64,000 nt of DNA from an uncultured Acidobacteriota bacterium (GTDB lineage Bacteria; Acidobacteriota; Vicinamibacteria; Vicinamibacterales; JAKQTR01): contig CAWFQE010000004.1 in the NCBI GenBank assembly GCA_963817885.1, positions 21,419-85,418 on the forward strand, in the 5' to 3' direction. Both the position numbers and the translations under genes were made by a program. Under the pieces are notes generated by a model. It did not search any database. It saw only the letters and a program-made list of their open reading frames with translations, and was not told the DNA's origin. This document shows positions 5,995 through 63,781 of the stretch, piece by piece (position 1 is the stretch's first letter; every line of letters starts with the position of its first letter).

Positions 5995-6294
5995 GGAGCG
6001 AATCCTACTCGATCTTGCACCCGCCTGGCGCATGCCCGAGGCTTGCCCCGGGGCCTCGGATTTCTGCAGGAACGAGGCCCAATTCCGCCGACGGGCCAAC
6101 CCCCCCGGCGGCGCCTGCGAGGGACTCGGCCACAGCCCACGCGGCCTTGCGGCGAACACAGCTTGGCGCTAGCCTTGTACGCCCCCCGTTCAGGGTGGTC
6201 GCACCCGATTGCCGACGCCGTTCGGTTCGAACCCAAGGTGCAGACCACGGCCACCACACTTCGCTGCAGCGCCTTTCGCGAAGGAGGGACACGC

Positions 6295-9200: not shown

Positions 9201-9354
9201 TCATCCCGATCGCTCGAGATGTTCAACACGTTCAACAACGCCAACAACGTGAACCCGCTCTCCACGCCGGCGCTGTTCAACTTCGACGGCTTCCTGCGGC
9301 AGGGCGTCGGCGATCCGCGCCAGGTCGCAGCTCGCGGTGAAGCTCGTGTTCTGA
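6295..9354 (+). CDS. TonB-dependent receptor with N-terminal carboxypeptidase-regulatory-like domain; reading frame broken at least 10 times
   Basis: MCRTRLILMLVAMALALALPAAGQ signal peptide is followed by GAVVDSSGAVLPGVDVEVRNVDTNLTRSLVTDREGRFVALQLPPGRYTLTFKLSGF. Plug-like TPGVSVVQG..FAGQRG follows, and barrel segments (NFNYSKNTNQTF.., DYGLRWDAQ.., IYYARQNML.., RGATFGVRKRFSNQYQFEANYVLSK..) hop among all three frames. The terminal ..RQVQLAVKLVF is followed by a stop at 9352-9354. Confidence 0.8.
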
Positions 9355-9497
9355 TTTTCTGCAGGGGCGGAGCCGCGGGTCGTGGGCGGCCCCCAGGCTC
9401 CGCCCTCACGTGTCGCCGGCGCGACAGCCCCGTCGTCTCGCAGGGGCTGCGTGGCGAGGGCCGCTCGCGGCGACATGGGAGACCGCCCGAGTCGCCT

Positions 9498-10244
9498 CTA
9501 GATCCAAGGCCCGCCGTTCTCCAGTCCGTTGCACGCAGATCCGCCAGGTCCGTGAGGCGTCCGCAGGCTCGAAGCAGCGCGACCTCGCCGCGTCGGGCAC
9601 TTCGCGCGTCCTCGTGCGACCAGCTCAGAGTGGCCGGGACGTGGACGGCCCATCCCCCGAGCTCGAGGACCGGCAGGATGTCCGACTTGACGGAGTTGCC
9701 GACCATCAGGAAACGCCGGGCGTCGACGCCCTGCCGTGCCAGGATCGAGGCGTACACGGCCGCGGTCTTGTTGCTGACGACTTCGACGAACCGAAAGTGA
9801 TCGCGCAACCCGGACCGATCGACCTTGGATGTCTGGTGCAGCAGGTCGCCCTTGGTGATGAGCACCAGCGGGTACGCCGCGGCAAGCGTCGTGACCGCCT
9901 CGCGCGCGCCCTCGAACAGCTCGATCTCTTCGCGTCAGCATCTGCTTGGCCAGGTCGATCAGCCCCTGGATCTCGCCTCCGGCCACCCGGCCCCCGGCGA
10001 GCGCAAGCGCGCTCTCGATGAGCGACAGGATGAAGTTCGACACGCCGTAGCCGTAGTAGGGGATGTTCTGCAGCTCCACCCGATTGACGTGCGCGTCGAT
10101 CTCATCCTCGCTGAGGACGACACCGGCGGAAGCCAGCAGCCGGTAGAACCGGTCGCGCCCCATCCGGTAGCTGCGCTCGTTGTGCCACAACGTGTCGTCG
10201 CCGTCGAACGCAATCAGATCGAACGCCCGCTTCGCCATGTTCAC
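9498..10244 (-). CDS. HAD-superfamily hydrolase, frame-broken; 3-prime end uncertain
   Basis: The N-terminus MAKRAFDLIAFDGDDTLWHNE carries the DxDxT motif. The later conserved part PLVLITKGDLLHQTSKV...FLMVGNSVKSDILPVLELGGWAVHVP sits in track ORF 9005..9865, a different frame. Confidence 0.6.
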   Translation of the reverse strand: MNMAKRAFDLIAFDGDDTLWHNERSYRMGRDRFYRLLASAGVVLSEDEIDAHVNRVELQNIPYYGYGVSNFILSLIESALALAGGRVAGGEIQGLIDLAKQMLTRRDRAVRGRARGGHDACRGVPAGAHHQGRPAAPDIQGRSVRVARSLSVRRSRQQQDRGRVRLDPGTAGRRRPAFPDGRQLRQVGHPAGPRARGMGRPRPGHSELVARGRAKCPTRRGRAASSLRTPHGPGGSACNGLENGGPWI

Positions 10245-10446
10245 ACTCTGTGCAAGTAACGCCCTGAGTACCTATTCTTACCTCAGAAGCCGGCACACTG
10301 GACCGAGGAAAGCCGTCATTTGCTCCATGGCTGGCGGCGTATCGGACGTAGTCCTTGGTCTTCGCGGACTCGATGTCGCCCGGGGCATTCGCGGATTGAT
10401 GTAGCCCGGGGTCTTTAGACCCCGGGTCTGGAGTTTCTACATATTG

Positions 10447-11843
10447 TCACGCCGCAGCGGCATGAGTGAGCCCACGATCGGTGGGCGCGAAGTGGAATTC
10501 TGTCACGAGCTCCGGATGGTCCACGACTTCTTGTCGCAGCAACGTGATCAGGTCGAGGCACGACGGGCGGAGGGCGTGTCGTCGCCACTTCGGCAACGCG
10601 GCGTAGACGGTTCCCCGCTCGGCGCCGAAGGCGACGAGGGCCGCCAACAACAGCGCGCTGTATGCGGCGACCGACAAGGCCGGTTGCTTGGGGACGGCGG
10701 TCGCGTTCCACAACTGCGCCTGCCCGATCCCCAAGGTGTCCTTCTCCTCGCGATGATTGACTTCGATCTGCCAGCGATCGAAATAGATTTGCAGCAGGGC
10801 GTGGGCCCAGCTGGTCTGGTCGGTGGTCAGCAGATACGCGGGCTGTCGATAGTACGTCTTGCCGCTGTGGCGCTTGCGGTACGGCGTCGGCGCGACCACG
10901 AAGAGGCGCAGCGACCGACGGCCGGCGCCGCCTTGCCACAAGAGGGCCGGCACTTCTTGTACCGGATCCGTCGCCGCTTCCCGCCATAACAGAGTTTGGT
11001 CGTCTGCCACGGGATCGTGTCGTCCTGACGCACCTGCTCGGGCGTGAACTTGGTGACATCGTAGACGCGCCGCTCCCCGGTCGGGGCGTGGCGGCAGAGT
11101 TTCGCGTCCCGGCGTGTCCGGCCGATCACCTCGGTGCGGGCGACCTCGGCCCGCAAACACGTCCGATTACAGAAGCTGCCATCGACCGCCAGCACCAAGG
11201 TCTGTCGGGCGCCCCCGGCCAGATCCAGGTCCGTGCGCAGCCCGTGGGCCATCGTGACGAAGCGGGCCGACAGATTGTGGATCTTGACCGCCGCCTTGTA
11301 GGCGATCCAGGCGGCGGGGTCGGCCGTTCGCGGGGGCTTCTTGACGCACGATACCTCCTCGAAGCGGATGGGCAGCGCCCGCGTGTACAACGGGGCGCGC
11401 CTGTGCAGCGGCACCAACACCGAGGCTTGGAGAAAGCGGATCGCGCGGATCAGATTGACATGGAAGGGCGGCGACAGCGGGTCGCGGTGATAGGCCGCCT
11501 GCGGGATACACCGCCCGGTCTTGTGCACCCGCGTGTCATCGACGGCAACGCCGACCAACCGACCGCGGCACAGCGGCCGCGCGCGGGTCAGGATGGCCTG
11601 GAACAGCGCCTGGGGCTCCCAGTGACAGCGCGAGTGCAGGAAGTACTCGGCGCTCCAACTGCGGTGCTGGCCGCCGTGGGTCCAGATGATCCGCGACAAA
11701 CAGCGGCGCCCGAGACACAGCAACGAGCCCACGGCCTGGCGCACGGCGCGCCGATAGGTGCGCCGTTGCGGAAAGACGTCGCGCCACGGGGCGACGATGC
11801 CCAGGAACGTGCCCAGCAACGTCGCCGGCGGCGCGGCGATCAT
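10447..11843 (-). CDS. DDE transposase, IS4-like, split by one frameshift near 10980-11000
   Basis: Track ORFs 10827..11843 and 10447..11160 join around ..IPWQTTKLCYGGK / AATDPVQEVPALLWQGG... The C-terminal part has Y-x2-R-x3-E-x6-K in IYFDRWQIEVNHREEKDTLG, the IS4 YREK signature. Confidence 0.75.
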
Positions 11844-12178
11844 CGCCCCTCCGGGCGCAGCCCAAAGGTATTCTTATCCGGGCGGGTGAAGCGATCACCT
11901 CGCGCCACTTTCTTGGTGAGCGAGGAGACCAGGCTCTCGCGATCCACGGTCACGTGGAACTGGGCCGCGATACGGGTGAGGATCTCCGAGACATGTAAGG
12001 GGCCGCGGGCTTTCTTGAGTACGTCATGCGCCATGTCCACTTGGGACAGACCTTTGCGAACACGCGGCGTCTTCGAGGTGGGCTCCCCGTGGCGCAGGCG
12101 GCGCACGGCTCGCAACTGGGCGTCCAATGAGGCTTCCACAGTGCCGAGAATCAGGTCTTTGAGATCATCGTCGGGCAT
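11840..12178 (-). CDS. Small helix-turn-helix-like protein encoded upstream of the transposase
   Basis: MPDDDLKDLILGTVEASLDAQL...SQVDMAHDVLKKARGPLHVSEILTRIAAQFHV resembles a HARE-HTH-type winged helix. Its stop overlaps the transposase ATG (ATGA at 11840-11843). The family assignment is tentative. Confidence 0.35.
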   Translation of the reverse strand: MPDDDLKDLILGTVEASLDAQLRAVRRLRHGEPTSKTPRVRKGLSQVDMAHDVLKKARGPLHVSEILTRIAAQFHVTVDRESLVSSLTKKVARGDRFTRPDKNTFGLRPEGR

Positions 12179-12295
12179 CGGCGGCTCCTGATGTGACCGC
12201 ACCAGGATGCCACATCAACGTCGGTCTGTCAACACTATATATGACCGACCGACTCAAATGTAGAAACTCCAGGCCCGGGGTCTTTAGACCCCGGG

Positions 12296-12540
12296 TTTGG
12301 GCGGCCTACATCGGAAGGGATCGCGCCGGGCGCCAGCGGTGTCCGCCGGGTCTAAAGACCCGGCCCACATCGGAAGAAGGGGCCTACACCTGAAGGTGCT
12401 ACCGCTCTGATTGATGTCGCCCGGGGAGTTCGCGGACTCGATGTAGCCCGGGGTCTTCAGACCCCGGGATCGAGCGTGCGCCAGCCGTGTCCGCCGGGTC
12501 TAAAGACCCGGCCGACATTGGAAGGGATCGCGCGGGCCGC
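12296..12540. repeat. Cluster of REP-like hairpins (GTAG/CTAC-flanked palindromes)
   Basis: gtgtccgccgggtctaaagacccggcc.acat.ggaag occurs twice, at about 12338 and about 12486. gatgtcgcccgggg.gttcgcggactcgatgtagcccggggtcttcagaccccggg at 12411-12468 repeats the sequence at 10372-10426. Confidence 0.7.
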
Positions 12541-12544
12541 TCGC

Positions 12545-13729
12545 CTATTTGCCTATCACCAGGATCGTGAACGAGCCCGGGATCGCCAGGCCCTGCCCGC
12601 CGCGACCGCCGGCCGGCGGCGGCGTGGGGGCCGGCCCGCGCTCGACGCTCATGGTCAGGAGATGCTGCGTCTTGGGATCGAACGTCAGCGTCCGCGCGCC
12701 CATCATCGTCTGCAGATTCTGCTCGACTTCGAAGCTGGCCGGGCTCGTCTCCTTGACGACGGTCAGCGTGCCGTTTCCGTGCGTGCTGAAGGCTTCCAGC
12801 GTCACCGGGTTGAAAAATGCGCCGTCGGAGCCGCCAGCGAGCGGCAGCCTCGTGATGATCTTGCCGTCCACGGCACTGAGGATGACCATCACCGGCTTGG
12901 GCGGCTGCGCGGGTTGTGCCGGAAGTGCGACTGTTGCGGCCGCCGGCTCGGCGGGCCGTGGTGTCGGGGCGGGCGGAGCAGGCACCGGGCCTGAAGCAGC
13001 GCACGCCGCGAACAGCACGCGGTTCTTCGCGTCCAGGGCGAGCCCGTTACACCGTCCTGCCTCGCCGAACGGATAATGCGCGGTCGCCTTCATCGTCCTG
13101 GCGTCGACCACGGTCACGCTCCCCTGCGGGTCCTGCATGACAACGTAGAGCGTGCCTTTGCCGTCGGACACGCCCTGCTCGGGCACACCGCCCAGATTGA
13201 TCGTGCCGAGCACGGCGCCGTCCTTGGCATCGATCACCGTCGCGTCCTTCGTCGGATGACTGAAGACGTAGATGCGCTCGTTGAAGGCATCGAACAGGAT
13301 GCCGTCCGGCTGGGCGGCGCCCACGTCGATCTTCTTGATGAGCGTCAGCGTCTTCGTGTCGAACATGCAGACGGGCTTGCTGCTCGAGAAGCCATGGCCC
13401 GACTTCGGGTCGACTGCCACCCCGTTGCCCCCCGTGTCGAGGATTTCTCCGAGCAGCTCGAGCGTGTCGAGATTGAAGACGGTGATTCGGCCGGCCCCCG
13501 CCGGCCTGGCCGGCGCGGTGTCGGTCGCGGGAACGGCGCGCGAGCCGCCTCGCGGGATGTACAGCCGGCGTGCGGCGGAGTCGGCGTAGATGTAATCGAA
13601 ACCGCCCTCGCCGCCGACCTTCGCAGAACTGAGCACCTTGTACGGACCGGCGGATCCGGCCTGGCCGGCCAGAAGGGCCGGCGTGACGAGCGCGATGACA
13701 ACCGCGGATACCAGGCAGAATCGGCGCAT
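12545..13729 (-). CDS. Secreted YncE/YVTN-type beta-propeller repeat protein with a proline-rich insert
   Basis: Signal peptide MRRFCLVSAVVIALVTPALLAGQ. Blade-like segments recur (..GGFDYIYADSAARRLYIP.., ..GNGVAVDPKSGHGFSS.., ..PDGILFDAFNERIYVFSH.., ..CNGLALDAKNRVLFAAC..). The frame is intact at 394 aa. Confidence 0.55.
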   Translation of the reverse strand: MRRFCLVSAVVIALVTPALLAGQAGSAGPYKVLSSAKVGGEGGFDYIYADSAARRLYIPRGGSRAVPATDTAPARPAGAGRITVFNLDTLELLGEILDTGGNGVAVDPKSGHGFSSSKPVCMFDTKTLTLIKKIDVGAAQPDGILFDAFNERIYVFSHPTKDATVIDAKDGAVLGTINLGGVPEQGVSDGKGTLYVVMQDPQGSVTVVDARTMKATAHYPFGEAGRCNGLALDAKNRVLFAACAASGPVPAPPAPTPRPAEPAAATVALPAQPAQPPKPVMVILSAVDGKIITRLPLAGGSDGAFFNPVTLEAFSTHGNGTLTVVKETSPASFEVEQNLQTMMGARTLTFDPKTQHLLTMSVERGPAPTPPPAGGRGGQGLAIPGSFTILVIGK

Positions 13730-52973: not shown

Positions 52974-53657
52974 ATGCGACTGCTCCCCCTCGTAATCGCG
53001 TTGCTGCTCTCTGTTCCAGCGGAGGCGCAGATGAACGTGGACAACATCCATTGGCTCGGCCACGCGTCGTTCCGCATCCAGGACGGCGCGACCATCATCT
53101 ACATCGACCCGTGGAAGATCAGCGCGGGCGCCCCGAAGGCGGACGTCGTGCTCATCACGCACGGCCACTACGATCACTTCTCGCCGGAGGACCTCGCGAA
53201 GATCGAGAAGCCCGGCACCGTGTTCGTGGCGCCGGCCGATGTCGCGGCCAAGCTCACGGGCAGGAAGGTGCTGGTCGCCACACCCGGAGAGAGCCTGCAC
53301 GCCGGGGCCCTCGCGGTGACGGCGGTCCCCGCCTACAACATGAACAAGCAGTTCCACCCCAGGTCGAACAACTGGGTCGGCTACGTCGTGACCCTGTCGA
53401 CGGGCCAGCGCATCTATCACAGTGGCGACACCGACGCGATCCCCGAGATGAAGGCGCTGAAGGTGGACGTGGCGATGATGCCCTGCGGCGGCACCTACAC
53501 GATGACGGCGGCCGAGATGGCCGAGGCGGCAAACGGGTTCAAGCCCGCGATTCTCATCCCGATGCACTGGGGCGACATCGTCGGCTCGAAGGCCGACGCC
53601 GAGACCGTGGCGAAGATCTTCAAGGGGAAGACCGTCATCAAGACGGTGGAGAAGTAG
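52974..53657 (+). CDS. Secreted MBL-fold metallo-hydrolase
   Basis: MRLLPLVIALLLSVPAEAQ signal. VVLITHGHYDHF carries the HxHxDH motif, and later HSGDT and IPMHWG occur. The start is internal to track ORF 52920..53657. Confidence 0.75.
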   Translation: MRLLPLVIALLLSVPAEAQMNVDNIHWLGHASFRIQDGATIIYIDPWKISAGAPKADVVLITHGHYDHFSPEDLAKIEKPGTVFVAPADVAAKLTGRKVLVATPGESLHAGALAVTAVPAYNMNKQFHPRSNNWVGYVVTLSTGQRIYHSGDTDAIPEMKALKVDVAMMPCGGTYTMTAAEMAEAANGFKPAILIPMHWGDIVGSKADAETVAKIFKGKTVIKTVEK

Positions 53658-53826
53658 GGACGCGGTCGAGGGTCGACCGGCGCCTGAGGGCGCGGGCACC
53701 AGCCACCGAAGTCCAGTCAAAGCCCGGGTGCGGGTACTGGTCTCGTCTCGTGCTCGAGGAAGACTACCGGCCTCCGCATAATCCGAGGGGACGCCCGAAG
53801 CCTTGGCGACCGCGGGAGGACTCGCG

Positions 53827-54405
53827 ATGAGAAAGGTGATCCTCTTCGTCCAGGTTTCCCTGGACGGCTTCTTCGAGGGACCGAAGAAGGAGCTCGACTG
53901 GAACATGGTCGATGACGAGCTCCACGCCTACTTCAACGAGGAGCTCAAGGCGATGGGCGCCTTCCTGAGCGGACGCGTCACCTACGAGCTCATGGCCGCA
54001 TACTGGCCGACCGCCGACGCCAACCCCGGGAGCCCTCCTTTCGTGAAGGAGTTCGCCCGGATCTGGCGGGAGATGCCCAAGGTGGTCTATTCGAAGACCC
54101 TCACCTCGGCGGGGTGGAACACCACGATCGCCCGGGACGTGGTGCGGGAAGAGGTCGAGTCGCTCAAGCTGCGGGCCCGTGGGGATCTCGTGGTCGGGGG
54201 AGGGGACCTGGGCGCGGCCTTCATGGCCAAGGACCTGATCGACGAGTACCGGATCTACGTCCACCCGATCCGGATCGGGGAGGGGAAGCGCCTATTTCCC
54301 CCGTCGAAGGAGAAGGTCCTGCTGCGCCTCGCGGAGACCCGGACGTTCGGGAACGGGGTCGTCCTTCTCCGGTACGAACGACTCCGGCCCGGTGGGGGGA
54401 GCTAG
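53827..54405 (+). CDS. Dihydrofolate-reductase-like (RibD C-terminal domain) family protein
   Basis: MRKVILFVQVSLDGFFEGPKKELDW...GAFLSGRVTYELM...DLVVGGGDLGAAFMAKDLIDEYRIYVHPIRIGEGKRLF is the typical pattern of this family. Confidence 0.75.
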   Translation: MRKVILFVQVSLDGFFEGPKKELDWNMVDDELHAYFNEELKAMGAFLSGRVTYELMAAYWPTADANPGSPPFVKEFARIWREMPKVVYSKTLTSAGWNTTIARDVVREEVESLKLRARGDLVVGGGDLGAAFMAKDLIDEYRIYVHPIRIGEGKRLFPPSKEKVLLRLAETRTFGNGVVLLRYERLRPGGGS

Positions 54406-54515
54406 ACGACCACCCGGGCGCGCCGCCGTTTGACGGTGCGTGCCCGATTCGCTAATATCGATGGTCTGGCCTCTGACAGTTACGGCTGTCCGAGGCCGCG
54501 CGATCTGGCCAATAT

Positions 54516-54590
54516 TCCTCAGTAGCTCAATGGCAGAGCATCCGGCTGTTAACCGGAGGGTTGCAGGTTCGAGTCTTGCCTGAGGAGCCA
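54516..54590 (+). tRNA. tRNA-Asn (anticodon GTT)
   Basis: Cloverleaf by hand: acceptor TCCTCAG/CTGAGGA, D-arm GCTC-AATGGCA-GAGC, anticodon arm TCCGG-CTGTTAA-CCGGA, variable GGGTT, T-arm GCAGG-TTCGAGT-CTTGC, discriminator G, encoded CCA. Confidence 0.9.
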
Positions 54591-54813
54591 ATCCTTTCAA
54601 CAACTTCCAAGCATCAGCTTCGCGCCATCCCCCGACTTTGCCCTTTTTCGTGCCCGGTTCTATTGGTGTTGTTGAGAAGGCGTCGAAGTCAACCGGATGC
54701 TCGCAGACTTCGCGGTCTTGCCGTCAACCGGCGCCCTGGCAATCAGTTGACCTGAAAGGACATTGTCGCGAGGCGAAGGTGGAGGCGGTGCCGCTGTTGC
54801 CGCTCGTTGACGC

Positions 54814-55647
54814 TTACAGAACACTCAATAGCTTCTGCACAAGCTCGAACGCGCGCCGTGCCTGCATGGCGCGTTCGTTCCCGTCGCTCGAATCGTGGAA
54901 GACCGCAAGCTGTCGCGGCCCGTAGAAGTCGACGGACTGGAACTTCTCGCGCAGGATCCGAATCCCCTCCACCACCAACGCATCATCGGAACGCGATCGC
55001 CAGTCATCGCCGACAACCGTGATCGCGTTCGGGAACTCGTCCAGGCAGTAACAGATGTCGTACACGTCTTTCGGTTTGTCTCTGCCGTTGACCGCATGCG
55101 CCTTCATGATGATGAAATCGGGGAGCGACGCGACTCGCAGGTGCACGGTGTTCGATGCACCTGAGATCATCGGACCCTCGAACTCGACGATCGCGGGGCG
55201 GCGGAGCGCGGCGGCGCATGAAGGAACCTGCAGAACCCTGAAGTCGCCGACAAGCTTCGGGCGATTCTTCTTCATCTTCACGTCGGCGGGTGCCAGGAAC
55301 TCAACGTCCACCCGGACGGGCGCCTCGGCGTCCTTGAGGTCGACCGTCGTTACGAGCTGGAACGTCTTGTCGCCCTTTTCATAGCGGCCGGTGTCGAACA
55401 AAAGCCCCAAGAGCTCCGCGTATCGTCCGTCGGCGAGCTTCTGCGCGTCGAGCGCGAGATCGACGTCGATGCTCCCGACGTGCGCCGTCCCCGGCGCGGG
55501 GATGATGAGATCGGGCACCCACCCCCCAACCACGACGATCGCATCGCGGAACGAACCCAGCACCTGGGCAACGTCGACGAGTACACGGCGAGCCGCCTCA
55601 ACCTGCCGGTTGGTGTAATCGCCTTCGTAGAGTGGTTCGTGGCTCAT
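54814..55647 (-). CDS. AbiEii/AbiGii-like nucleotidyltransferase (type IV TA toxin family)
   Basis: ATG at 55647 (MSHEPLYEGDY) overlaps the upstream stop (ATGA). NTase motif VVVGGWVPDLI...GSIDVDLAL. C-terminal family motif IIMKAHAVNGRDKPKDVYDICYCL (K..A...R...K/RD.YD). Confidence 0.65.
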   Translation of the reverse strand: MSHEPLYEGDYTNRQVEAARRVLVDVAQVLGSFRDAIVVVGGWVPDLIIPAPGTAHVGSIDVDLALDAQKLADGRYAELLGLLFDTGRYEKGDKTFQLVTTVDLKDAEAPVRVDVEFLAPADVKMKKNRPKLVGDFRVLQVPSCAAALRRPAIVEFEGPMISGASNTVHLRVASLPDFIIMKAHAVNGRDKPKDVYDICYCLDEFPNAITVVGDDWRSRSDDALVVEGIRILREKFQSVDFYGPRQLAVFHDSSDGNERAMQARRAFELVQKLLSVL

Positions 55648-56786
55648 GCCTTGACCGCCGCCCAAGCTGGCTTCAGCCGTTGCCGCAGAATCGCTTCCGC
55701 GGCCTCCTCGCCGCGAGCGCCGGCGTGAACGACATCGACGTAGGTCTGTACCGGGTTCGTGCACGACAGCCGATTGACGCCGGCGTCCGGCCTGTAGAGG
55801 ACCCCCGGATCACCGGGGAGCAGCACGATCACGTTCTCGCCAGAGTCCACGCGCTTTGCTTCCACCGTTGATTCGAATTCCTGCTCTATTCCCGGTTGCA
55901 TGTAGAGCCAGGTGCGGGGCTGCCGGACTGCTGGCGCCTGCAGATCCGCGGCTGAAAAGACCGCGTAGGAAAGGCGTCCGAGGCCTCCCGGGTCAATGGC
56001 TCGCAGTCGGTCTCGAAGAGCGGACCCCTGCAAGAGCGTGAAGTAGGGGCGTCGCTCGTGGCGCTCGAATCGATACGCGGATCGCCACGCCTGCAGCAGT
56101 CCGTCGAAGTCGTGAACGCAAAAGCCGCGATTGGGCATGGGCTCGAGGAACGCCTGGTCGCGCAAGTGCTGAACGACCTTGTTGACGAGCGCAAGGCTCG
56201 GCGCAGGAACACGCGGAACAAGGTCCGCGAAGTGCGCAACCATGTCGCGCTGAGTCCACCGGCGGCCGGCGTTCTCCGGCGCCAGTAGCGCACGAACCAC
56301 GCGGGCGGCTTCGGGGGTGCCCAGGTTCGCGCCCGACCGCCGCGAGATCTTGACCGGCTCTTTCCCCGAATGATCGATGTGCAGGAGGCCCGGTACGTCA
56401 AGGCGACAGTTGCCCGCCGAGTCGTACCAGCTCCAGCCCCGCTCGCGACACAGGGCCGCCATCCGCGGAGACACGCGCGGCATTGCGAGGACCCTCGCGC
56501 AGACGGCATCCTCGCTAGCGGAGCAAGGGCGATCGGCAATACTGGAGAACTGGACCGGTTGGAAACTGAGACTCTTACACTCGACCCAGAGCACCGCGTT
56601 TCCGCGCCCAGGCACGCTTCCGGAAACGCGCAAGTCCCAGCCAGGCTGCGTCCTTGGCGCTGACGCTACGGACCAGTTCTTCAGCCATGAAACCTCGCCC
56701 AGCAGATTCTGCAGGGTCTCTGCGAGTTGTCGCTCCAGGGCCGATCCATGGATCTGCTCTATGTTCACGACTGAGCCATTGTTCAC
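55644..56786 (-). CDS. AbiEi-like antitoxin/regulator with an N-terminal PD-(D/E)xK nuclease-like extension
   Basis: GTG start at 56786. The N-terminus has GWDLRV...AVLWVECKS (D...E-x-K pattern). A central winged-helix-like segment follows (RVVRALLAPENAGRRWTQRDMVAHF...LVNKVVQHLRDQAFLE). The C-terminus ..VIVLLPGDPGVLYRPD...CTNPVQTYVDVVHAGARGEEAAEAILRQ is typical of AbiEi-family C-terminal domains. Confidence 0.6.
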   Translation of the reverse strand: MNNGSVVNIEQIHGSALERQLAETLQNLLGEVSWLKNWSVASAPRTQPGWDLRVSGSVPGRGNAVLWVECKSLSFQPVQFSSIADRPCSASEDAVCARVLAMPRVSPRMAALCRERGWSWYDSAGNCRLDVPGLLHIDHSGKEPVKISRRSGANLGTPEAARVVRALLAPENAGRRWTQRDMVAHFADLVPRVPAPSLALVNKVVQHLRDQAFLEPMPNRGFCVHDFDGLLQAWRSAYRFERHERRPYFTLLQGSALRDRLRAIDPGGLGRLSYAVFSAADLQAPAVRQPRTWLYMQPGIEQEFESTVEAKRVDSGENVIVLLPGDPGVLYRPDAGVNRLSCTNPVQTYVDVVHAGARGEEAAEAILRQRLKPAWAAVKA

Positions 56787-56816
56787 AACATTGTGAACAT
56801 ATCACGTGTAGTGAAC
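56763..56816. promoter_or_regulatory. Nested inverted GTTCAC/GTGAAC half-sites overlapping the AbiEi-like start codon (candidate operator)
   Basis: GTTCAC at 56763. The palindrome GTTCACA-acat-TGTGAAC spans 56781-56798. GTGAAC at 56811. The outer half-sites sit 18 nt from the inner ones on each side. The region is visibly AT-richer than its surroundings. Confidence 0.5.
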
Positions 56817-57007
56817 ACAATTCAAATACTGCCTATATTCGGCGCGATCCATGCTCTGGAAGAGCTGCTCGAGACGACGCCCGGGCGGCCGTTGACAGCG
56901 CGCGCCTCCGCGCGTGCCGAGGCGTTCCTCGCGGTTGTGCTACTACGATTACTAGCGCACAACATCATTGTGTGTAGTATAGGTCATGGACACAACGGCG
57001 GAGCGTC

Positions 57008-58528
57008 ATGGCCTACGTCCGTAAACGCGGCAACCAGCTGGCCATCGTTCACGGGGAGCGGGAGCCGGGAACCGGTAAGGTGCAGCAGCGGATCCTGTTT
57101 ACCATTTACTCCAAGGCCGAGGCCCTCGAGATCCTCGGCCGCGGGAAGAACCAAGGCCGCTGGAACTTCGAGGGACTGTTTCGACAGCAGTTCACCGACG
57201 TCAAGGTCGACTGGAACGACATCCGGCGAGGGATCGAGGAGAACCTGGACTCCCTGCCAGATCTTCATGAGTACCGCTCGGAACGTCTGCGCGGGCGGTT
57301 CCGCGACGATCTGTGCACCTTCACGAAGCAACTCATACTTGCCGATCCACAGGATCTGATTTCCTCGGCCCATCTCATCACGGAGCATCGGCACGAGCTC
57401 GAGTACTTGACGGACCTCATTGCCTGGCGTCTCAAGCTGCGGGACCAGGAGCCCACCGAGTGGAACGAGGACAACCTGTTCTACTGGCGCTTCGCCTTGC
57501 AGGGCCGATCCGTGCCGCCAGACACGGAGGAACACGCTGCCGGCTTGTACGAGCGCGGCGAATACGACAAGGCCGACGCCGTCTTCCGGCTGCTGGTCGA
57601 CTGCTTTGATGGGTATGCCGAGGGCTACAACTACCTGGGTCTTATCGCCTACCAGCAGGGCAAGCTCGAGGAGGCGGTCGCGCGCTTCGAGAAGACCACC
57701 GAGCTTGGGCGCAAGTCCTTCCCTGCTCGCATTCCCAAGAAGCGCTACTGGAGTGACCACACCACGCGGCCCTACATGCGCGGCCTGCGGAACCTCGCTT
57801 TGACGCTCAACGAGGCCGGCAGGTACGACGAGGCAGTGACGGTCTGCAATCGCCTCCAGAACGAGTGCGGGGACGACTTCAGCGCGGCCTCCCACCGTGC
57901 AGCCATCTACCTCAACATGGGGAAGTGGGAGCAGGCCGCGGACTTCGCGAAGCGCTCGGGTGGCGATCTGGATCCCGCAGCTGGGTTCGTGGAGGCGTTC
58001 GCGCTCTTCGAGCTCGGGCGCGTCGAAGAAGCTCTCCCCGCGTTCGTACGCGCAGCGCTCAGTTCGCCGCGCGCCGCGCGCATGCTGGTCGGCGAGCGAA
58101 CGGCGGCGCCCAAGTGCTCCGAGGACGCCGAGGACCACAATACCGGCGTCTCCGAGCGCCGGCGACTGCGCGCCTACCTCGAGGATCAGCCTCGGAACGC
58201 GAAGAAGTTCTTCCGCGCTCTGGTCCGCGATCCGCGTGTGGCCAAGTTGCTCGATCAGAGCACGGCGGTCGTCCGGCGCTGGCACGAGGAGCACCATACG
58301 GGTGACCGCTCGGCCTTCGATCAGATGACGCTGGATCCGCTCGCGCGCGTTCGCTGCGGCGGAGGGGCGGAAGCTGCTCGACCTTCTCCCTCGTTCTGCG
58401 AAGTCGACACCACGATCGGCTCCACGCGACCCGAAGTGAGAGCCTCAGCGACCGAACGCCGATCTCGAACGACTATCTTGGGTGCGCTCGGGCACTGCCA
58501 CGAAGAGAAACCGTCGCGACGAACATGA
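57008..58528 (+). CDS. Protein with integrase Arm-type-like N-terminus and TPR repeats; the last ~70 codons are doubtful
   Basis: MAYVRKRGNQLAIVHGEREPGTGKVQQRILFTIYSKAEALE resembles the N-terminal Arm DNA-binding domain of tyrosine integrases (.RKRGN.W......G....F.TK.EA). TPR-like repeats follow (YAEGYNYLGLIAYQQGKLEEAVARFEKTTELG; LRNLALTLNEAGRYDEAVTVCNRL; AAIYLNMGKWEQAADFA). The tail from about 58320 is Arg/Ser/Gly-rich and not protein-like. Confidence 0.55.
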   Translation: MAYVRKRGNQLAIVHGEREPGTGKVQQRILFTIYSKAEALEILGRGKNQGRWNFEGLFRQQFTDVKVDWNDIRRGIEENLDSLPDLHEYRSERLRGRFRDDLCTFTKQLILADPQDLISSAHLITEHRHELEYLTDLIAWRLKLRDQEPTEWNEDNLFYWRFALQGRSVPPDTEEHAAGLYERGEYDKADAVFRLLVDCFDGYAEGYNYLGLIAYQQGKLEEAVARFEKTTELGRKSFPARIPKKRYWSDHTTRPYMRGLRNLALTLNEAGRYDEAVTVCNRLQNECGDDFSAASHRAAIYLNMGKWEQAADFAKRSGGDLDPAAGFVEAFALFELGRVEEALPAFVRAALSSPRAARMLVGERTAAPKCSEDAEDHNTGVSERRRLRAYLEDQPRNAKKFFRALVRDPRVAKLLDQSTAVVRRWHEEHHTGDRSAFDQMTLDPLARVRCGGGAEAARPSPSFCEVDTTIGSTRPEVRASATERRSRTTILGALGHCHEEKPSRRT

Positions 58529-58959
58529 TACCCTGGAGCGCGAGATCGAGCTCGCCCTCAGTCCCGGTGGCTTCATTTCCGACCGCGCGTGCTTTTCGTT
58601 CGGGAGCGAGCTCGAGGAAACGGCAACGAAGATCGCGACGCTCACAGACAGCTCGGGTTCATAGCGGGCTTCGAGCGGCTCGCCGCAGGTGCGCGCCACC
58701 GACCAGAACGGTCATTTCTCGATCGGGCCAAAGCGCGCTGGCCCAGACGTTGATCTGGACGACGTCGAAGGTGTCTGGCCGCGGTTCGCAAGGCGGCTGA
58801 TCTCGCGCACTCCTGCGGCACCGGGTGTGATGAGTCGCCCGCCGCTGGACCGCGCCGCGGCCGACGTTCCGGGCACCAGCACGACCGGGCGGCGTCTGTT
58901 ATCTCTCTCTCTGCGAGCCGATCACCGCTCGCACACGACAGGATGCAAAGCACGAGATC

Positions 58960-60801
58960 ATGAACAACGATGATTTGCTCCCGTCGCCGTGGGCCCGGCC
59001 GGCGACGCTCCGCGCCGCACTTGAGGAGCGCTACAACGGCGAAGCGCTCCGCCGGCTCGCGCAGGCGCTGGGTGTGGCCGGGCCGACCCGCAAAGCGGAT
59101 CTGGCGGCGGCCATCGCGGCGGCGGTCTTAGGTCCGGACCCCAGCAGTCCTCGGCCGAAAGATGTCTTCGCCAGACTGACCGATATCGAAAAGGCGGCGG
59201 TGGCCGAAGCGCTCTGCGACGAGAACCACACCTTCGACGCGCCACGGTTTCGCGCCAAGTACGGATCGGTGCCGGTCTGGTCCTCGCCACGGGGCACGCG
59301 CGAAGGCAAAACGCTGCTCGGCGTGTTCCTGATGCCGGGCAAGTTCGATCGCGAGCCGGACGAACCGTTCATCCCCGCCGATCTGGCCACCCGCTTGCGC
59401 CAGTTCGTGCCGGAGCCTCGCAAGGAAGCGCTCGGTTGTCTCACCGAACCGGTGCCGGTGAACGATGGTCCGCCGCTCACGGTCGTCGACACCGAACAAG
59501 CGGCCACCCGGGAGGTCTTCGGCGTGCTGCGGTTGGTGGACATGGGCAAGATCCAGGTCAGCGCCCAGACGCGTCGGCCGTCGGCCAAGGGAATGGCTGC
59601 TGTCAGGGAGGTGCTGGTCGGCGGCGACTTCTATCCGTCGGAGGAGAGGCAACACGGGTGGGAGCAAGAGATCGGGTCGATTCGGGCGTTTGCCTGGCCG
59701 CTCCTCGTGCAGGCGGCTGGCCTTGCCTCGGTCGCCGGCTCGAAGCTTGCCCTGACCTCTGCGGGACGCAGGGCCCTGACGCAACCAGCGGCCGAGACGC
59801 TGCGGCACGCGTGGAAGAAGTGGGTCGACACCTCGATCTTCGACGAGTTTTCCCGGGTGGACGCCATCAAGGGACAGAGCGATCGCAAGCGTCTGACGTC
59901 TGTCGCCGGTCGGCGGCACGCGATCGCCGACGCGCTGGCGGAGTGCCCGGTGGGAGCGTGGATTGCGATCGGTGAGCTGTCGAGGCACATGCGCGCGACC
60001 GGCAACACCTTCGAGGTTGCGCACGATCCGTGGAAGCTGTACATCGCGGAGATGCAGTACGGAAGTCTGGGCTACGACGGCAGCCACGCCTGGGGGATCC
60101 TGCAAGAGCGCTACATGATGGCGCTGCTGTTCGAATACGCAGCCACGCTGGGCCTGGTGGATGTCGCCTATGCGGCTCCTGAAGGCGCGAGAAGAGACTT
60201 CCGGTCCATGTGGGGAACCGATGATCTGGCCTTCTTGAGTCGGTACGACGGGTTTTCCTGCCTGCGACTCACCGGCCTCGGCGCGTTCTGTCTCGACGTC
60301 GCCGACAACCTCGAGACGACAGCGATCGCACCGACGAGCCGCGTGAGCGTTCTGCCGAGTCTCGACATCGTAGCGGATTCCGGACCGTTCGACCCGGGCG
60401 ACGAAACGTATCTGTCTACCTTCTGCGTGAGGCGCGGCGACGGCTTCGGCCTCGATCGTGCCACTGCCCTGGCGGCCATCGAGAAGGGGCACCGCGCGAG
60501 CGATCTGGTCCGTTTCCTCGAGGAGGCGTGTGGCGATGCACTCCCGGACTGTGCGCGGACGTTTCTCGCAGACCTGGAGCGCCGGGCGGCGATGCTCTCT
60601 GTCGCGGGTCATGCCCTGCTGATCGAATGCGCGGACCCGGACCTTGCTTCCCGTCTCGTCCGCGACACGAAGACCAGGCACCTGTGCACCGTGGCGGAGA
60701 ACGGGAGCATCATCGTTCCAGCGGAATCGGAGGTGGCCTTCAGGCGAGCCGTGCAGGCGCTCGGCTATCCGTTGCTCTCCGGCACGCGGGGGCGTGACTG
60801 A
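58960..60801 (+). CDS. SAP/HeH-like N-terminus plus XPB/Ssl2 N-terminal (helicase-associated) domain protein, without a helicase core
   Basis: The frame is intact at 613 aa. The N-terminus ALRRLAQALGVAGPTRKADLAAAIAAAVLG is SAP/HeH-like. The C-terminus ..VRFLEEACGDALPDCARTFLADLERRAAMLSVAGHALLIECADPDLASRLVRDTKTRHLCTVAENGSIIVPAESEVAFRRAVQALGYPL resembles the XPB damage-recognition-type module. No Walker motifs were seen. Confidence 0.5.
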   Translation: MNNDDLLPSPWARPATLRAALEERYNGEALRRLAQALGVAGPTRKADLAAAIAAAVLGPDPSSPRPKDVFARLTDIEKAAVAEALCDENHTFDAPRFRAKYGSVPVWSSPRGTREGKTLLGVFLMPGKFDREPDEPFIPADLATRLRQFVPEPRKEALGCLTEPVPVNDGPPLTVVDTEQAATREVFGVLRLVDMGKIQVSAQTRRPSAKGMAAVREVLVGGDFYPSEERQHGWEQEIGSIRAFAWPLLVQAAGLASVAGSKLALTSAGRRALTQPAAETLRHAWKKWVDTSIFDEFSRVDAIKGQSDRKRLTSVAGRRHAIADALAECPVGAWIAIGELSRHMRATGNTFEVAHDPWKLYIAEMQYGSLGYDGSHAWGILQERYMMALLFEYAATLGLVDVAYAAPEGARRDFRSMWGTDDLAFLSRYDGFSCLRLTGLGAFCLDVADNLETTAIAPTSRVSVLPSLDIVADSGPFDPGDETYLSTFCVRRGDGFGLDRATALAAIEKGHRASDLVRFLEEACGDALPDCARTFLADLERRAAMLSVAGHALLIECADPDLASRLVRDTKTRHLCTVAENGSIIVPAESEVAFRRAVQALGYPLLSGTRGRD

Positions 60802-60989
60802 GGCCGGGTCGTTCGACGGCGGCGCGCGACGTTGCCCTTCTCTTGCCCTTTCGGTGCACCAAACGCCGGCAAACGGCCGCAACGAGCGGCACAACGCGAA
60901 GGCCGAAATCCGGGCGTCTCCGGGGGCTGGGATGCGAGATCCGGCAGCCCCGGGCAAACCGACGCAAAGCGCGGCTAACGACGCTTTTT

Positions 60990-61119
60990 CCGCCTGTTAA
61001 CCGGAGGGTTGTCCGCCTCCGCTCGCCACGCTGAAGGTACGGCGAGCTACGGCGAGACCACGCCGTAGCTCCGTCTGCGGAGCGAAGGCGGGCAGGTTCG
61101 AGTCCTGCCTGAGGAGCCA
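60990..61119 (+). other. Partial direct copy of the tRNA-Asn 3-prime half, interrupted by an 80-nt hairpin insert (candidate att scar or tRNA-like element)
   Basis: ccgcCTGTTAACCGGAGGGTTG (60990-61011) and GCAGGTTCGAGTCCTGCCTGAGGAGCCA (61092-61119) match tRNA-Asn positions from the anticodon loop onward. Positions 61012-61091 are an insert with an 11-bp perfect stem (gagctacggcg/cgccgtagctc). No matching D-arm or 5-prime acceptor strand lies upstream. Confidence 0.7.
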
Positions 61120-61328
61120 ATCCCCTTTCTATTCAATCACTTCCACCGGTCAGCTGCGCTCACAACCATCCGGTCGCGAGAATCAGCATAAGTCATTCGT
61201 ATGCAGTTAGTTACGGCCGCGCCGCCGGGCCGCAGTGAATAATCGTGAACAATTCCGCGACCTCTTTACTGTCGTGTGTGTTGGGAGCATATTACTAATA
61301 GTGATAACGGGAACGAGGTGCCCTATGG

Positions 61329-61622
61329 ATGCGCGTTATCGCCAAGAAGACATTGCGTGACTTCTGGGACGTCCACCCTGACGCGGAAGAACCACTGCTC
61401 GCGTGGTACCGCGAAGTGGAACACGAGGACGGGGACACGCCCGCGAAGGCGAAGCAGAAGTACGCGAGTGCGAGCATCGTCGGAGACAACCGCGTTGTCT
61501 TCAATATCAAGGGCAACACGTACCGACTGGCCGTGAAGATCAACTACGCATATCGCGTTGTCTACATCCGGTTCGTGGGGACGCACGCGGAGTACGACGA
61601 GATCGACGTTAAGGAGATTTGA
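61329..61622 (+). CDS. higB: HigB-type (RelE-superfamily) mRNA interferase toxin
   Basis: MRVIAKKTLRDFWDVHPDAEEPLLAWYREVE...ASIVGDNRVVFNIKGNTYRLAVKINYAYRVVYIRFVGTHAEYDEIDVKEI matches the HigB_toxin family pattern almost position by position. Confidence 0.85.
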   Translation: MRVIAKKTLRDFWDVHPDAEEPLLAWYREVEHEDGDTPAKAKQKYASASIVGDNRVVFNIKGNTYRLAVKINYAYRVVYIRFVGTHAEYDEIDVKEI

Positions 61623-61624
61623 GC

Positions 61625-62845
61625 ATGAGCAAGATCAAAGCGATTCGGAACGACGCTGATCACGAGAAGGCGCTCGCCCGCATCGACGCGCTCATGGATG
61701 CTGATGCCGGTACGCCGGAAGGAGACGAACTCGACGTGCTGACTGACCTGGTCGAGCACTACGAGGAGAAGTCCGTTCCGATGGGGTTTCCGAGTGCGAT
61801 CGCCGCGATCGAGTTTCGGCTGGAGCAAGGAGGGCTGAACCCGCGAGATCTCGTCCCGTTCATCGGCAGCCGCGCCAAGGTGTCGGAAGTGCTTTCGGGC
61901 AAGAGACCGCTGACGATGCCGATGGCGCGCGCCCTTCACGAACATTTGGGGATCCCTGCAGATGTGCTCTTGCAGGGTTCAGGCGCGAAGTACGCAGAGC
62001 CGGCACGAGACCTCGACTGGGACCGCTTTCCGCTGAAAGCGATGGCGAGTCTCGGCTGGATTCCCAAGAGCCGCAATGTCCGATCGCGCGCCAAGGCTGT
62101 CATCACTGATCTGATCCGAAGGGCGGGAGGCGCCGAAGTTGCCGGCGCGGTCCTTTACCGCAAGAGTCAACACGTGCGAGCCAACGCCAAGACCGATTCG
62201 TATGCGCTCAGAGCGTGGTGCTGGAAGGTCCTCGCCGATGCCGATAAATGCCGCCCACGCGTGGGATACAAGCCGGGAACGGTCACCGTGGAGTTTCTCC
62301 GCGAACTCGCGCGACTGAGCTGGTCGGCCGAAGGGCCCCGGTTGGCCAAGGAGTACCTGGCGAAGCATGGCGTTCCCCTCGTTGCGGTTCCGCACCTGCC
62401 CAGGACGTACCTGGATGGCGCGGCACTCAAGCTGGCCGATGGGACACCGGTGATCGGACTCACGCTTCGCTACGACCGCGTTGACAACTTCTGGTTCTGC
62501 CTGCTGCACGAGCTCGCCCACGTCGGCCGTCACATGGATACAGACGGCGAGGCTTCCTTCGTTGACGACCTGACGCTCCGCAACGTCGAGGGAGGCCGCG
62601 AGGACCCGACCGAGGTTCAAGCAGATGAGTGGGCGGAGGAGGCGCTGATCCCTCGAGCCCTTTGGGAGACGAGCGCGGTGCGCAAGCGGCCGACTCCAAT
62701 GGCGGTGATCAGCCTGGCGAACGTCCTGCAGATCCACCCCGCGATCGTTGCCGGGCGGGTGCGCCACGAGCGCAGGAACTATCGACTGTTGTCGCAGTTC
62801 GTAGGCACCGGCCAGGTGCGGGTCCATTTCAACATGGCCGCTTGA
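61625..62845 (+). CDS. higA: HigA-type HTH antitoxin fused to an ImmA/IrrE-family (DUF955) zinc metallopeptidase domain
   Basis: The N-terminal ~130 aa is MSKIKAIRNDADHEKALARIDALMDA..GTPEGDELDVLTDLVEHYEEKSVPM...LVPFIGSRAKVSEVLSGKRPLTMPMARALHEHLGIPADVLL, a complete HigA with XRE HTH. The C-terminal ~270 aa contains FWFCLLHELAHVGRH (HExxH) plus a downstream E (EVQADEWAEEALIP). Confidence 0.75.
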   Translation: MSKIKAIRNDADHEKALARIDALMDADAGTPEGDELDVLTDLVEHYEEKSVPMGFPSAIAAIEFRLEQGGLNPRDLVPFIGSRAKVSEVLSGKRPLTMPMARALHEHLGIPADVLLQGSGAKYAEPARDLDWDRFPLKAMASLGWIPKSRNVRSRAKAVITDLIRRAGGAEVAGAVLYRKSQHVRANAKTDSYALRAWCWKVLADADKCRPRVGYKPGTVTVEFLRELARLSWSAEGPRLAKEYLAKHGVPLVAVPHLPRTYLDGAALKLADGTPVIGLTLRYDRVDNFWFCLLHELAHVGRHMDTDGEASFVDDLTLRNVEGGREDPTEVQADEWAEEALIPRALWETSAVRKRPTPMAVISLANVLQIHPAIVAGRVRHERRNYRLLSQFVGTGQVRVHFNMAA

Positions 62846-62935: not shown

Positions 62936-63781
62936 GTGATGCGGAAAGGACGCAAGGGGCATCACCCTGGGAGGAGGAATGGTCAGGTCTCACCATTCGG
63001 CCTGCCGTGGGGCACGTACCGGACGGCAATTGCGGTGGAAGACCAGCCGTTGGTGAATCCTCGGCAGGACTTCGAGATCAAGGAGAATGGCCAGGCGACA
63101 TTGCTTCTGGATCTTCAGCCGGACCCGCGCCACATTGTGTTCACTGGTCCCCTCACGAGTCGGGTCAAGGAAGTTGTTGATTCCTCCACTATCGAGGCTA
63201 GGCCAGCTTCTGAGTGGCTGACTGATCCAGCGGTGCGCCCGAGCCGGCGCGCGTGCCTGCTGAACATTCTCGCCAAGGCGTCCTGTTTCCCATCGCGGTC
63301 CTATCCGTTCATCTCCCACATTCAGAGCAACTTTCTGGCCGCCCCCGATCGGATCTATGCGACGGTCGACTCCGAGCTGCAGCCGATGCTCGCGAAGCTC
63401 GCGGATGATCCCCGCAAACCGATCTACCACGAAGGCAGGCCGACATCCGCGTGCCACAAACGCCTGCTCGAAGTCGTGAAGCAGAAGGGACTTCCCGGCG
63501 CTGCCGCGGCGTACAAGCCGCTCGACAGTTATCGTCAAGAAGGCGGACCCTGTCTTCAGTTCGTCGTCGCCGATCCGGACGGCGTCGAAGCTCCGTCCTA
63601 CGCCGATATCGACATCGATCTCGGCAACCCTCTTCAGGATCTGGCCGGTCTTATCGTGCATGCTGGTGAAGTCTTGAGCGGAAGGCTGACTGACCACCTG
63701 GCTTTGCGCAAGACGCTCGGGAAGAACAGGCAGGTGGCTCAGTTCCTCTGTTATGACGTCGTCTCCGGGGCGCCCGCCTAG
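62936..63781 (+). CDS. Hypothetical protein, no recognisable family
   Basis: The frame is intact at ~280 aa with protein-like composition, 90 nt downstream of higA-immA on the same strand. GAGG precedes the ATG at 62939. Confidence 0.45.
   Translation: MMRKGRKGHHPGRRNGQVSPFGLPWGTYRTAIAVEDQPLVNPRQDFEIKENGQATLLLDLQPDPRHIVFTGPLTSRVKEVVDSSTIEARPASEWLTDPAVRPSRRACLLNILAKASCFPSRSYPFISHIQSNFLAAPDRIYATVDSELQPMLAKLADDPRKPIYHEGRPTSACHKRLLEVVKQKGLPGAAAAYKPLDSYRQEGGPCLQFVVADPDGVEAPSYADIDIDLGNPLQDLAGLIVHAGEVLSGRLTDHLALRKTLGKNRQVAQFLCYDVVSGAPA

Follow-up and report, generated by a model that had tools for sequence, protein, structure and literature searches.

The 64,000-nucleotide (nt) stretch of contig CAWFQE010000004.1 analysed here, hereafter the window, comes from an uncultured Acidobacteriota bacterium. 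At 54516–61123 it carries a small island of defence-related genes that opens with an intact tRNA-Asn gene and closes with a displaced copy of that gene's 3' half. This region is probably a decayed, integrase-less and composite islet derived from tyrosine-integrase elements that target tRNA-Asn in soil Acidobacteria. The original prediction, made from the letters of the window by themselves, had described an island without a recombinase and had allowed for an unrecognised mechanism of integration. Such a mechanism is unneeded, because both ends of the islet are homologous to the arms of an attachment-site (att) family that belongs to a tyrosine integrase. Related contigs and loci are denoted below by labels of the form L095.

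The only tRNA gene in the window is tRNA-Asn(GTT), located at 54516–54590 on the plus strand by ARAGORN and Rfam (67.2 bits) and preceded by a promoter-like TTGACG/TAATAT at 54430–54458. From the anticodon loop onward (54546–54590), this gene recurs as a direct repeat ~6.4 kb downstream. The sequence CTGTTAACCGGAGGGTTG has exactly two occurrences in the window, at 54546–54563 and 60994–61011, with none expected by chance, and its match lengthens to 22 of 23 bases when started at 54541 in the tRNA and 60989 in the copy; this displaced piece 1 (60989–61011, plus strand) holds the anticodon stem-loop and variable region. The sequence GCAGGTTCGAGTC[T/C]TGCCTGAGGAGCCA also occurs twice (54563–54590 and 61092–61119), again with a chance expectation of none, and displaced piece 2 (61092–61123, plus strand) holds the T-arm, the 3' strand of the acceptor and CCA with one mismatch, followed by ATCC to read CCAATCC. 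Whereas these pieces adjoin in the tRNA, 80 nt separate them in the copy, a point that had been overlooked. No second copy of the tRNA 5' half is present anywhere in the 64-kb window. Past the CCA, AATCC follows in both copies, and next comes a block of 21 identical bases out of 28, a score reached by ~1% of shuffles or random windows; the block is also kept in the alignment of the att family. The copy has a sole mismatch left of the anticodon loop, which disrupts the anticodon stem and fits what would be expected of an unconstrained P arm. The T-stem of the copy is perfect through its one mismatch, where the live tRNA has a G-U pair; this fits the expectation for a live part that would be element-derived. 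This pattern of mismatches is in keeping with integration rather than duplication. Thus, the earlier reading of these features (a repeat of the 3' half but not of the 5' half, similarity extending past CCA, and together the footprint of site-specific integration at the 3' part of a tRNA gene) is borne out by the exact location of both pieces, the shared downstream block and the mismatch pattern.

A metagenome scan with the tRNA 3' end and the downstream motif identified 24 contigs, ~16 of which have one architecture. The shared order is TTGCCCTTnTCnTGCCC, ~150 nt, tRNA-Asn from its anticodon loop through CCA, AATCC, ~43 nt, a second TTGCCCTTnTCnTGCCC and further conserved blocks. An intact tRNA stands at the att site in two contigs only; the others are attP-like or internal array junctions. 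In the window, the P'-type arm at 54591–54704 (plus strand), which together with the intact tRNA constitutes attL, aligns with the P' arms of L095 and more than ten metagenome contigs. It contains AATCC, TTCAACAACTT, the motif TTGCCCTTTTTCGTGCCC (54638–54655) and CCGGATGCTCGC (54693–54704), and this last block includes the inverse complement of tRNA bases 54536–54545. At the right end of the islet, the P-type arm (60827–60988, plus strand) bears a second copy of the motif, TTGCCCTTCTCTTGCCC (60832–60848), and the segment 60827–61012 is ~80% identical to the P arm of L120 over 186 nt and more weakly similar to that of L107. The 17-nt motif is found in both arms in the window, L095 and L109; in the P arm it lies ~160 nt ahead of the core in L109 and, as a one-mismatch variant, in L120. 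The point at which P' homology stops varies from contig to contig. We considered whether the contigs have in common a sharp outer limit of P' that would mark the end of a cassette, and rejected this, as six contigs remain similar past the point at which the window diverges.

The att site also has an internal symmetry. Within P', the conserved block CCGGATGCTC is exactly inverse-complementary to the tRNA sequence GAGCATCCGG, which lies directly 5' of the anticodon loop, so that in attL a 10-bp inverted repeat (54536–54545 and 54693–54702) surrounds the core. The CCGGATGCTC block is kept in most integrase-less members of the family.

A full tyrosine integrase gene lies beside the core, on the opposite strand, in L106 and L114 (Phage_integrase E 4.4e-31) and in L125, the last of which was found via the integrase family. 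In all three, the integrase open reading frame (ORF) reads through P' into the tRNA-like core, an arrangement from which it appears that integration must change the C-terminus of the integrase. The region that matches the window P' arm is, in the integrase-bearing relatives, the 3' coding end of the integrase gene, and ~50 C-terminal integrase codons are left in the P' of L099, L103, L107, L109/L110 and L120. The integrase family has more than 1100 members and, to our knowledge, has not been described before. Att junctions without an adjacent integrase make up the majority in the family contigs. L109 and L095 have partial tRNA-Asn copies arrayed in tandem that no integrase adjoins, L095 having no intact tRNA and three direct partial copies between different gene sets; L125 has two tRNA-Asn fragments, one of them adjoining the integrase. 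No relaxase, conjugation, mobilisation or phage genes were seen in the relatives' loci that were examined, and viral contigs contained neither the att pattern nor the split-fragment pattern.

Within the island itself, Pfam searches detected no recombinase, transposase or relaxase domain in any ORF and no recombinase in the ORFs of the spacer at 58391–58959. Consistently, tblastn with the family integrase against the 64-kb window gave no homologue, the match being limited to the tRNA-encoded stretch. The recombinase reported as missing is therefore indeed absent from the island. Because the window P' arm is homologous to the arms of its relatives, we infer that an integrase gene was deleted here.

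The cargo is a mosaic of an AbiE-like gene pair, a gene for a TPR protein and a gene for a 613-residue protein. L095, which was found via its TPR homologue, has 81% DNA identity to window positions 54538–58390, a stretch that takes in the tRNA 3' half, AbiEii, AbiEi and TPR. This DNA homology stops at 58390, the end of the TPR gene, and resumes after the 613-residue gene, at CTGAG plus the motif. The gap in homology argues that the 613-residue gene and the spacer are a secondary insertion into an AbiE–TPR islet. The TPR gene has also lost its stop codon, with TCG in the window in place of the TGA of L095, and its ORF is extended by a tail of unrelated sequence. Taken together, the aligned sequences suggest a 2.4-kb insertion at the lost TPR stop (58360–58400). 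The L095 sequence TGACTGAG (7875–7905), which lies close to the motif, reappears at the stop of the 613-residue gene (window 60797–60830).

Gene neighbourhoods in other contigs agree with this division. The TPR gene is divergent beside an AbiE-like pair in three of five contexts, namely the window, L095 and L096/L097 (two of four besides the window), and is not so placed in L122/L123 and L124. For the 613-residue gene, the neighbours in four further distinct contexts are unrelated. To judge from these arrangements, AbiEii, AbiEi and TPR are one module, and the 613-residue gene is an independently inserted single-gene cargo. The TPR and XPB-N-like (613-residue) genes had been proposed as a pair riding with AbiE; we rejected this pairing, which is not conserved, after reading four other distinct contexts of each gene. 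The TPR protein has only a weak 27% match to the gene upstream in L083.

The island had been taken to end at 61119. Foreign DNA, however, does not end there, as PD-Lambda-2 genes and a lower GC content run on to the end of the window (0.57–0.65 right of the copy vs mostly 0.66–0.70 upstream of the tRNA). A truncated P'-like sequence at 61120–61165 (plus strand), with the first conserved block only and no motif, forms the left end of a next islet. The cargo of this islet (61329–62845, plus strand; PADLOC, Pfam HigB_toxin) comprises the HigB-like PD-Lambda-2_A (61329–61622, PADLOC E 1.4e-40) and PD-Lambda-2_B, with a helix-turn-helix and an M78 peptidase (61619–62845, PADLOC E 3.3e-143). A PD-Lambda-2 system consists of genes A, B and C together. 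The ORF that follows gene B (62936–63781, 281 residues) had no Pfam, PADLOC or PHROG match and may be a divergent third component. Since foreign DNA continues past 61119, the islet is best viewed as a single unit within an array of islets in tandem. Ahead of the HigB-like gene, AGTGAATAATCGTGAACAATT (61234–61257) closely resembles tandem GTGAACAAT repeats in L095 (3985–4008 and 15054–15075), which there mark the start of a ~100-nt arm preceding two tRNA fragments; by this resemblance, AGTGAATAATCGTGAACAATT could be an operator or an arm-type site.

Based on these comparisons, we propose a plausible history for the islet. In the attP of the ancestral element, the part of tRNA-Asn that runs from the anticodon loop to CCA would have stood between a P arm and a P' arm. 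Recombination between this element and the tRNA gene would have followed, with the crossover most likely within the anticodon loop or immediately behind it. This would have rebuilt the tRNA from element DNA, giving attL (tRNA plus P'), and displaced the host 3' half to the far end, giving attR (P plus fragment). Intact relatives would represent the complete form, with the integrase gene beside the core on the opposite strand and its 3' end crossing P' and entering the core, an arrangement like that of phage Mx8. In the window, the integrase gene would then have been deleted, leaving ~115 nt of P'. The cargo that remains would be the AbiEii/AbiEi/TPR module and a separately inserted gene resembling p52 and the XPB N-terminus, and an 80-nt GC-rich hairpin element would later have interrupted the displaced fragment. 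The islet would finally be one unit of a tandem array, with the PD-Lambda-2 DNA on its right opening with a truncated P' arm.

Several observations weigh against this history. The window P' arm has no protein-level remnant of an integrase beyond the tRNA-encoded part. The right end of the array, and any integrase there, lie outside the window. The insert in the displaced fragment recurs at a similar site in L109. In addition, neither an empty site nor an excised circle was found, and in ten related metagenome-assembled genomes (MAGs) the left flank is not syntenic and only a RibD_C gene is shared.

Other explanations of the same features were weighed. The islet might be a functional cassette resembling cis-mobilizable elements (CIMEs), moved by an L106-type integrase that is encoded elsewhere in the genome or on an incoming element and that would excise, exchange or co-transfer the islet via attL and attR with their 17-nt motifs. 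The CIME concept is established (PMC5704250), and such a cassette would accord with the retention of both arms, still recognisably homologous to those of the relatives, with the identity of the two copies over the 18 nt from anticodon loop to variable region, and with the predominance of integrase-less junctions in the family. Both arms survive, yet the split attR, the damaged TPR gene and the uneven P' ends look like decay: the attR fragment is divided by 80 nt and has a stem-breaking mismatch, the P' homology ends vary among contigs as they would under random decay, and the lost TPR stop is followed by a 570-nt spacer without a recognisable gene. We therefore consider a functional cassette unlikely. 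Somewhat lower still stands the possibility that the islet is the left part of a larger element whose integrase lies past 64000, with the copy at 60989–61123 as an internal relic. Island-type genes and lower GC do extend to the window end, and an array with an internal integrase exists in L125, but the integrase of this family adjoins the core on the P' side, and neither of the two P' positions of the window (from 54591 and from 61120 onward) has one.

Two further explanations were considered. An ancient tandem duplication of tRNA-Asn, with a decayed second copy and ordinary chromosomal genes in between, would explain why similarity extends ~40 nt past CCA in both copies. It is strongly disfavoured, and we give it the least credence of all, given that the flanks are arms of a widespread att family that lie beside unrelated genes in many contigs, that the same AbiE–TPR module follows a partial tRNA copy in the non-syntenic L095, and that the 5' half is absent. 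It is also highly improbable that the island encodes a non-canonical recombination system in which an Arm-like domain of the TPR protein binds the 17-nt motifs and recruits a host recombinase. The profile searches gave no match to arm-binding domains, the TPR gene also occurs away from att junctions, intact elements have the motif within the coding end of the integrase, and a conventional integrase accounts for the family; these points are set against the predicted beta3-alpha N-terminal domain, the presence of the motif in both arms and the proximity of the TPR gene to att junctions in the window and L095. On balance, a decayed composite islet of the tRNA-Asn-targeting integrase family remains the probable explanation.

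The left part of the cargo is transcribed from the minus strand. The AbiEii-like nucleotidyltransferase toxin (54814–55647) matches PF08843 (E 4.5e-7, 30.5 bits against a cut-off of 22.5), and the AbiEi-like antitoxin/regulator (55644–56786) matches PF09952 (AbiEi_2, E 2.6e-6, 28.2 bits against a cut-off of 21). The AbiEii ORF runs to 55764; its likely start is the ATG at 55647, which overlaps the AbiEi stop, so that the two genes are adjacent in one operon with an overlap at 55644–55647. Each has 82% amino-acid identity to its L095 counterpart, and within the pair PADLOC recognised AbiEii only. On these matches and this gene order, AbiEii and AbiEi are a predicted AbiE pair, of the type IV toxin–antitoxin and abortive-infection class, in keeping with the original prediction, both proteins scoring above the Pfam cut-offs. 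Between AbiEi and the TPR gene lies the divergent intergenic region 56787–57007, with a GC content of 0.575, the lowest within the island, and a promoter-like site at 56812–56839 on the plus strand; the AT-richer divergent promoter patch described earlier is thus confirmed.

The TPR protein is encoded at 57008–58528 on the plus strand, and only 57008–58390 is homologous to the family, whose members have ~470 residues; homologues cover 87% of the query. Its TPR repeats, recognised earlier, are matched by Pfam TPR families. The AlphaFold2 (AF2) model has a predicted local distance difference test (pLDDT) score of 81 and begins with a beta3-alpha domain, with strands at residues 2–7, 10–18 and 25–33 and a helix at 36–42 (pLDDT 77–86). 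A three-stranded beta-sheet on a helix defines arm-type domains. The N-terminus gave no match to Pfam at E values up to 1 and, in a profile search of the PDB, a sole match to ribosomal L24e at E = 1; none of the island proteins matched PHROGs. Foldseek with the whole TPR protein returned TPR proteins only, which swamp the N-terminal domain. The Arm-type N-terminus that had been suggested for this protein has the predicted shape of three strands plus a helix but gains no support from the sequence-profile searches, which were negative. The spacer that follows (58391–58959, ~570 nt) has no recognisable gene and no similarity to related loci. A hidden gene there was considered and rejected, as its ORFs have no Pfam match.

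The 613-residue protein (58960–60801, plus strand) has more than 2000 homologues. It has a SAP-like N-terminus and a Helicase_C_3 match of 27 bits, below the cut-off. With its AF2 model (pLDDT 82), Foldseek retrieved 8ebs_D (E 6.5e-6), 6trs_A and 6nmi_D as TFIIH p52 chains; 6trs_A is annotated as p52, and we take 8ebs_D and 6nmi_D to be p52 chains as well. A further match, 8ebv_A (E 1.4e-5), which aligns over ~170 residues, is presumably XPB. In the predicted model, the likeness to p52 covers most of the protein and the likeness to the XPB N-terminal domain covers ~170 residues. The protein has no helicase core, and its gene lies next to no XPB-type helicase partner, either in the window or in four further distinct contexts. 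The sub-threshold Helicase_C_3 match and the predicted p52/XPB-N fold support the earlier description of a SAP/XPB-N-like protein, and for a fold known from prediction 'XPB-N-like' is a fair name. A homologue with 60% identity lies directly downstream of a tRNA-Gln gene in L082/L083, in an integrase-less stretch (5282–13000) rich in toxin–antitoxin genes, with an ERCC4 nuclease, HicAB and HepT/MNT.

The insert that divides the displaced tRNA fragment (61012–61091, plus strand) is a GC-rich hairpin sequence of 80 nt, unique in the window. Folding of the fragment region with the insert included (60985–61123) gave z = −2.8, with hairpins predicted, and Rfam, applied to 53500–62500, found the tRNA only and no match to the split fragment or the insert. 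The L120 junction, although otherwise homologous, lacks the insert and has an unbroken tRNA fragment. L109 has a homologous insert between GGGTTG and the T-loop (143–280); in both the window and L109, the insert site lies between the variable region (GGGTTG) and the T-arm. Chance insertion may therefore not fully account for the 80-nt insert. In L095, L109 and L116, related hairpins that end in GCGAAGGCGGr directly adjoin TGAGGAGCC. Hairpin relatives occur at L095 12900–12975 and 15235–15294 and at L116 1–36, sometimes as ~100-nt units in tandem. The hairpin could represent a small repetitive element, or it could be an arm that belongs to a different class of integrase.

Scanning genomes with the RibD_C protein yielded the ten acidobacterial relatives (species-level MAGs) referred to above, the source organism being Vicinamibacteria-like. 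The RibD_C-family gene, just upstream of the tRNA in the window (53733–54405), has 86–94% DNA identity in these ten MAGs, none of which conserves the sequence on either side of it. It lies on the 5' side of tRNA-Asn in the window and on the 3' side, in convergent orientation, in L002 and L009, which suggests a rearrangement or a mobile gene. In these two loci, which represent two other species, tRNA-Asn is followed by small integrase-less islets of 1.5 kb (L002, 9048–10658) and 3.6 kb (L009, 10643–14315), the latter with a sulfatase. Both islets are bounded by a direct repeat of ~30 nt that extends from the T-loop to CCA. Repeats that start in the T-loop suggest that a second integrase class, with a T-loop crossover, also uses tRNA-Asn.

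The islet shares much with known tRNA-associated elements. Like the tDNA (tRNA gene) islands catalogued by Islander, which requires an integrase gene inside each island (PMC4383910), it has a tRNA regenerated by element DNA and a displaced 3' fragment in direct orientation at the far end, its repeat begins at the anticodon loop, and tandem arrays occur at one tDNA. With ~6.5 kb (54591–61119), it falls within the Islander length range of 2–200 kb, and a full tDNA and a same-orientation fragment, the latter split by 80 nt, lie on one replicon. It differs in having no tyrosine integrase between the tDNA and the fragment and in the 80-nt split. It likewise resembles a CIME, and by analogy could be regarded as equivalent to the CIMEs of the literature on integrative and conjugative or mobilizable elements (PMC5704250). 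In CIMEs and accretion tandems, integration genes are lost, attL and attR are kept, and decayed elements stand in tandem at the tRNA 3' end; in the islet, integration and transfer genes are gone and both att sites are kept, attR being interrupted. It differs from CIMEs in phylum (Acidobacteriota) and att family, and none of the relatives showed genes for conjugation or mobilisation.

An attP inside the integrase gene is known for Mx8 of Myxococcus and for SSV (PMC4383910), and the passage of the integrase ORF through P' into the tRNA-like core in L106, L114 and L125 is comparable. Here, however, the overlap is confined to the very 3' end, integration is directed at tRNA-Asn, phage genes were not seen, and the window has no integrase. 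The tycheposon islands of Prochlorococcus (bioRxiv 10.1101/2020.12.28.424599) are similarly tRNA-adjacent, with successive integrations, partial tRNAs, degenerated elements and cargo that is often defence-related, but they differ in lineage and integrase family, and their hallmark replication modules were not seen in the window. Asparagine tDNAs of Klebsiella pneumoniae are also recurrent targets of different islands (PMC4891358). Those islands have their own integrases and virulence cargo, and both the elements and the hosts are unrelated to those studied here. An integrase-less remnant with defence-type genes at a tRNA gene is a common finding that is already understood.

The missing recombinase is accordingly no pointer to a new integration mechanism; the island is probably a decayed unit of a conventional tyrosine-integrase family. 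Our analysis defines the att-site architecture of a large integrase family of poorly studied soil Acidobacteria, and the tRNA-Asn gene in these acidobacterial genomes appears to gather arrays of small defence islets. It also corrects the pairing of the cargo genes, as the TPR gene travels with AbiE and not with the XPB-N-like gene, and flags two widespread proteins of unknown function in defence islands. A more speculative idea, which we regard as doubtful, is that the att junctions are kept because an Mx8-like integrase, acting in trans, still mediates the exchange of integrase-less cargo islets at tRNA-Asn, with the predicted beta3-alpha domain of the TPR protein serving as an arm-site accessory factor. 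If this were true, these arrays would amount to an integron-like, tDNA-anchored cassette array of defence genes in Acidobacteria.

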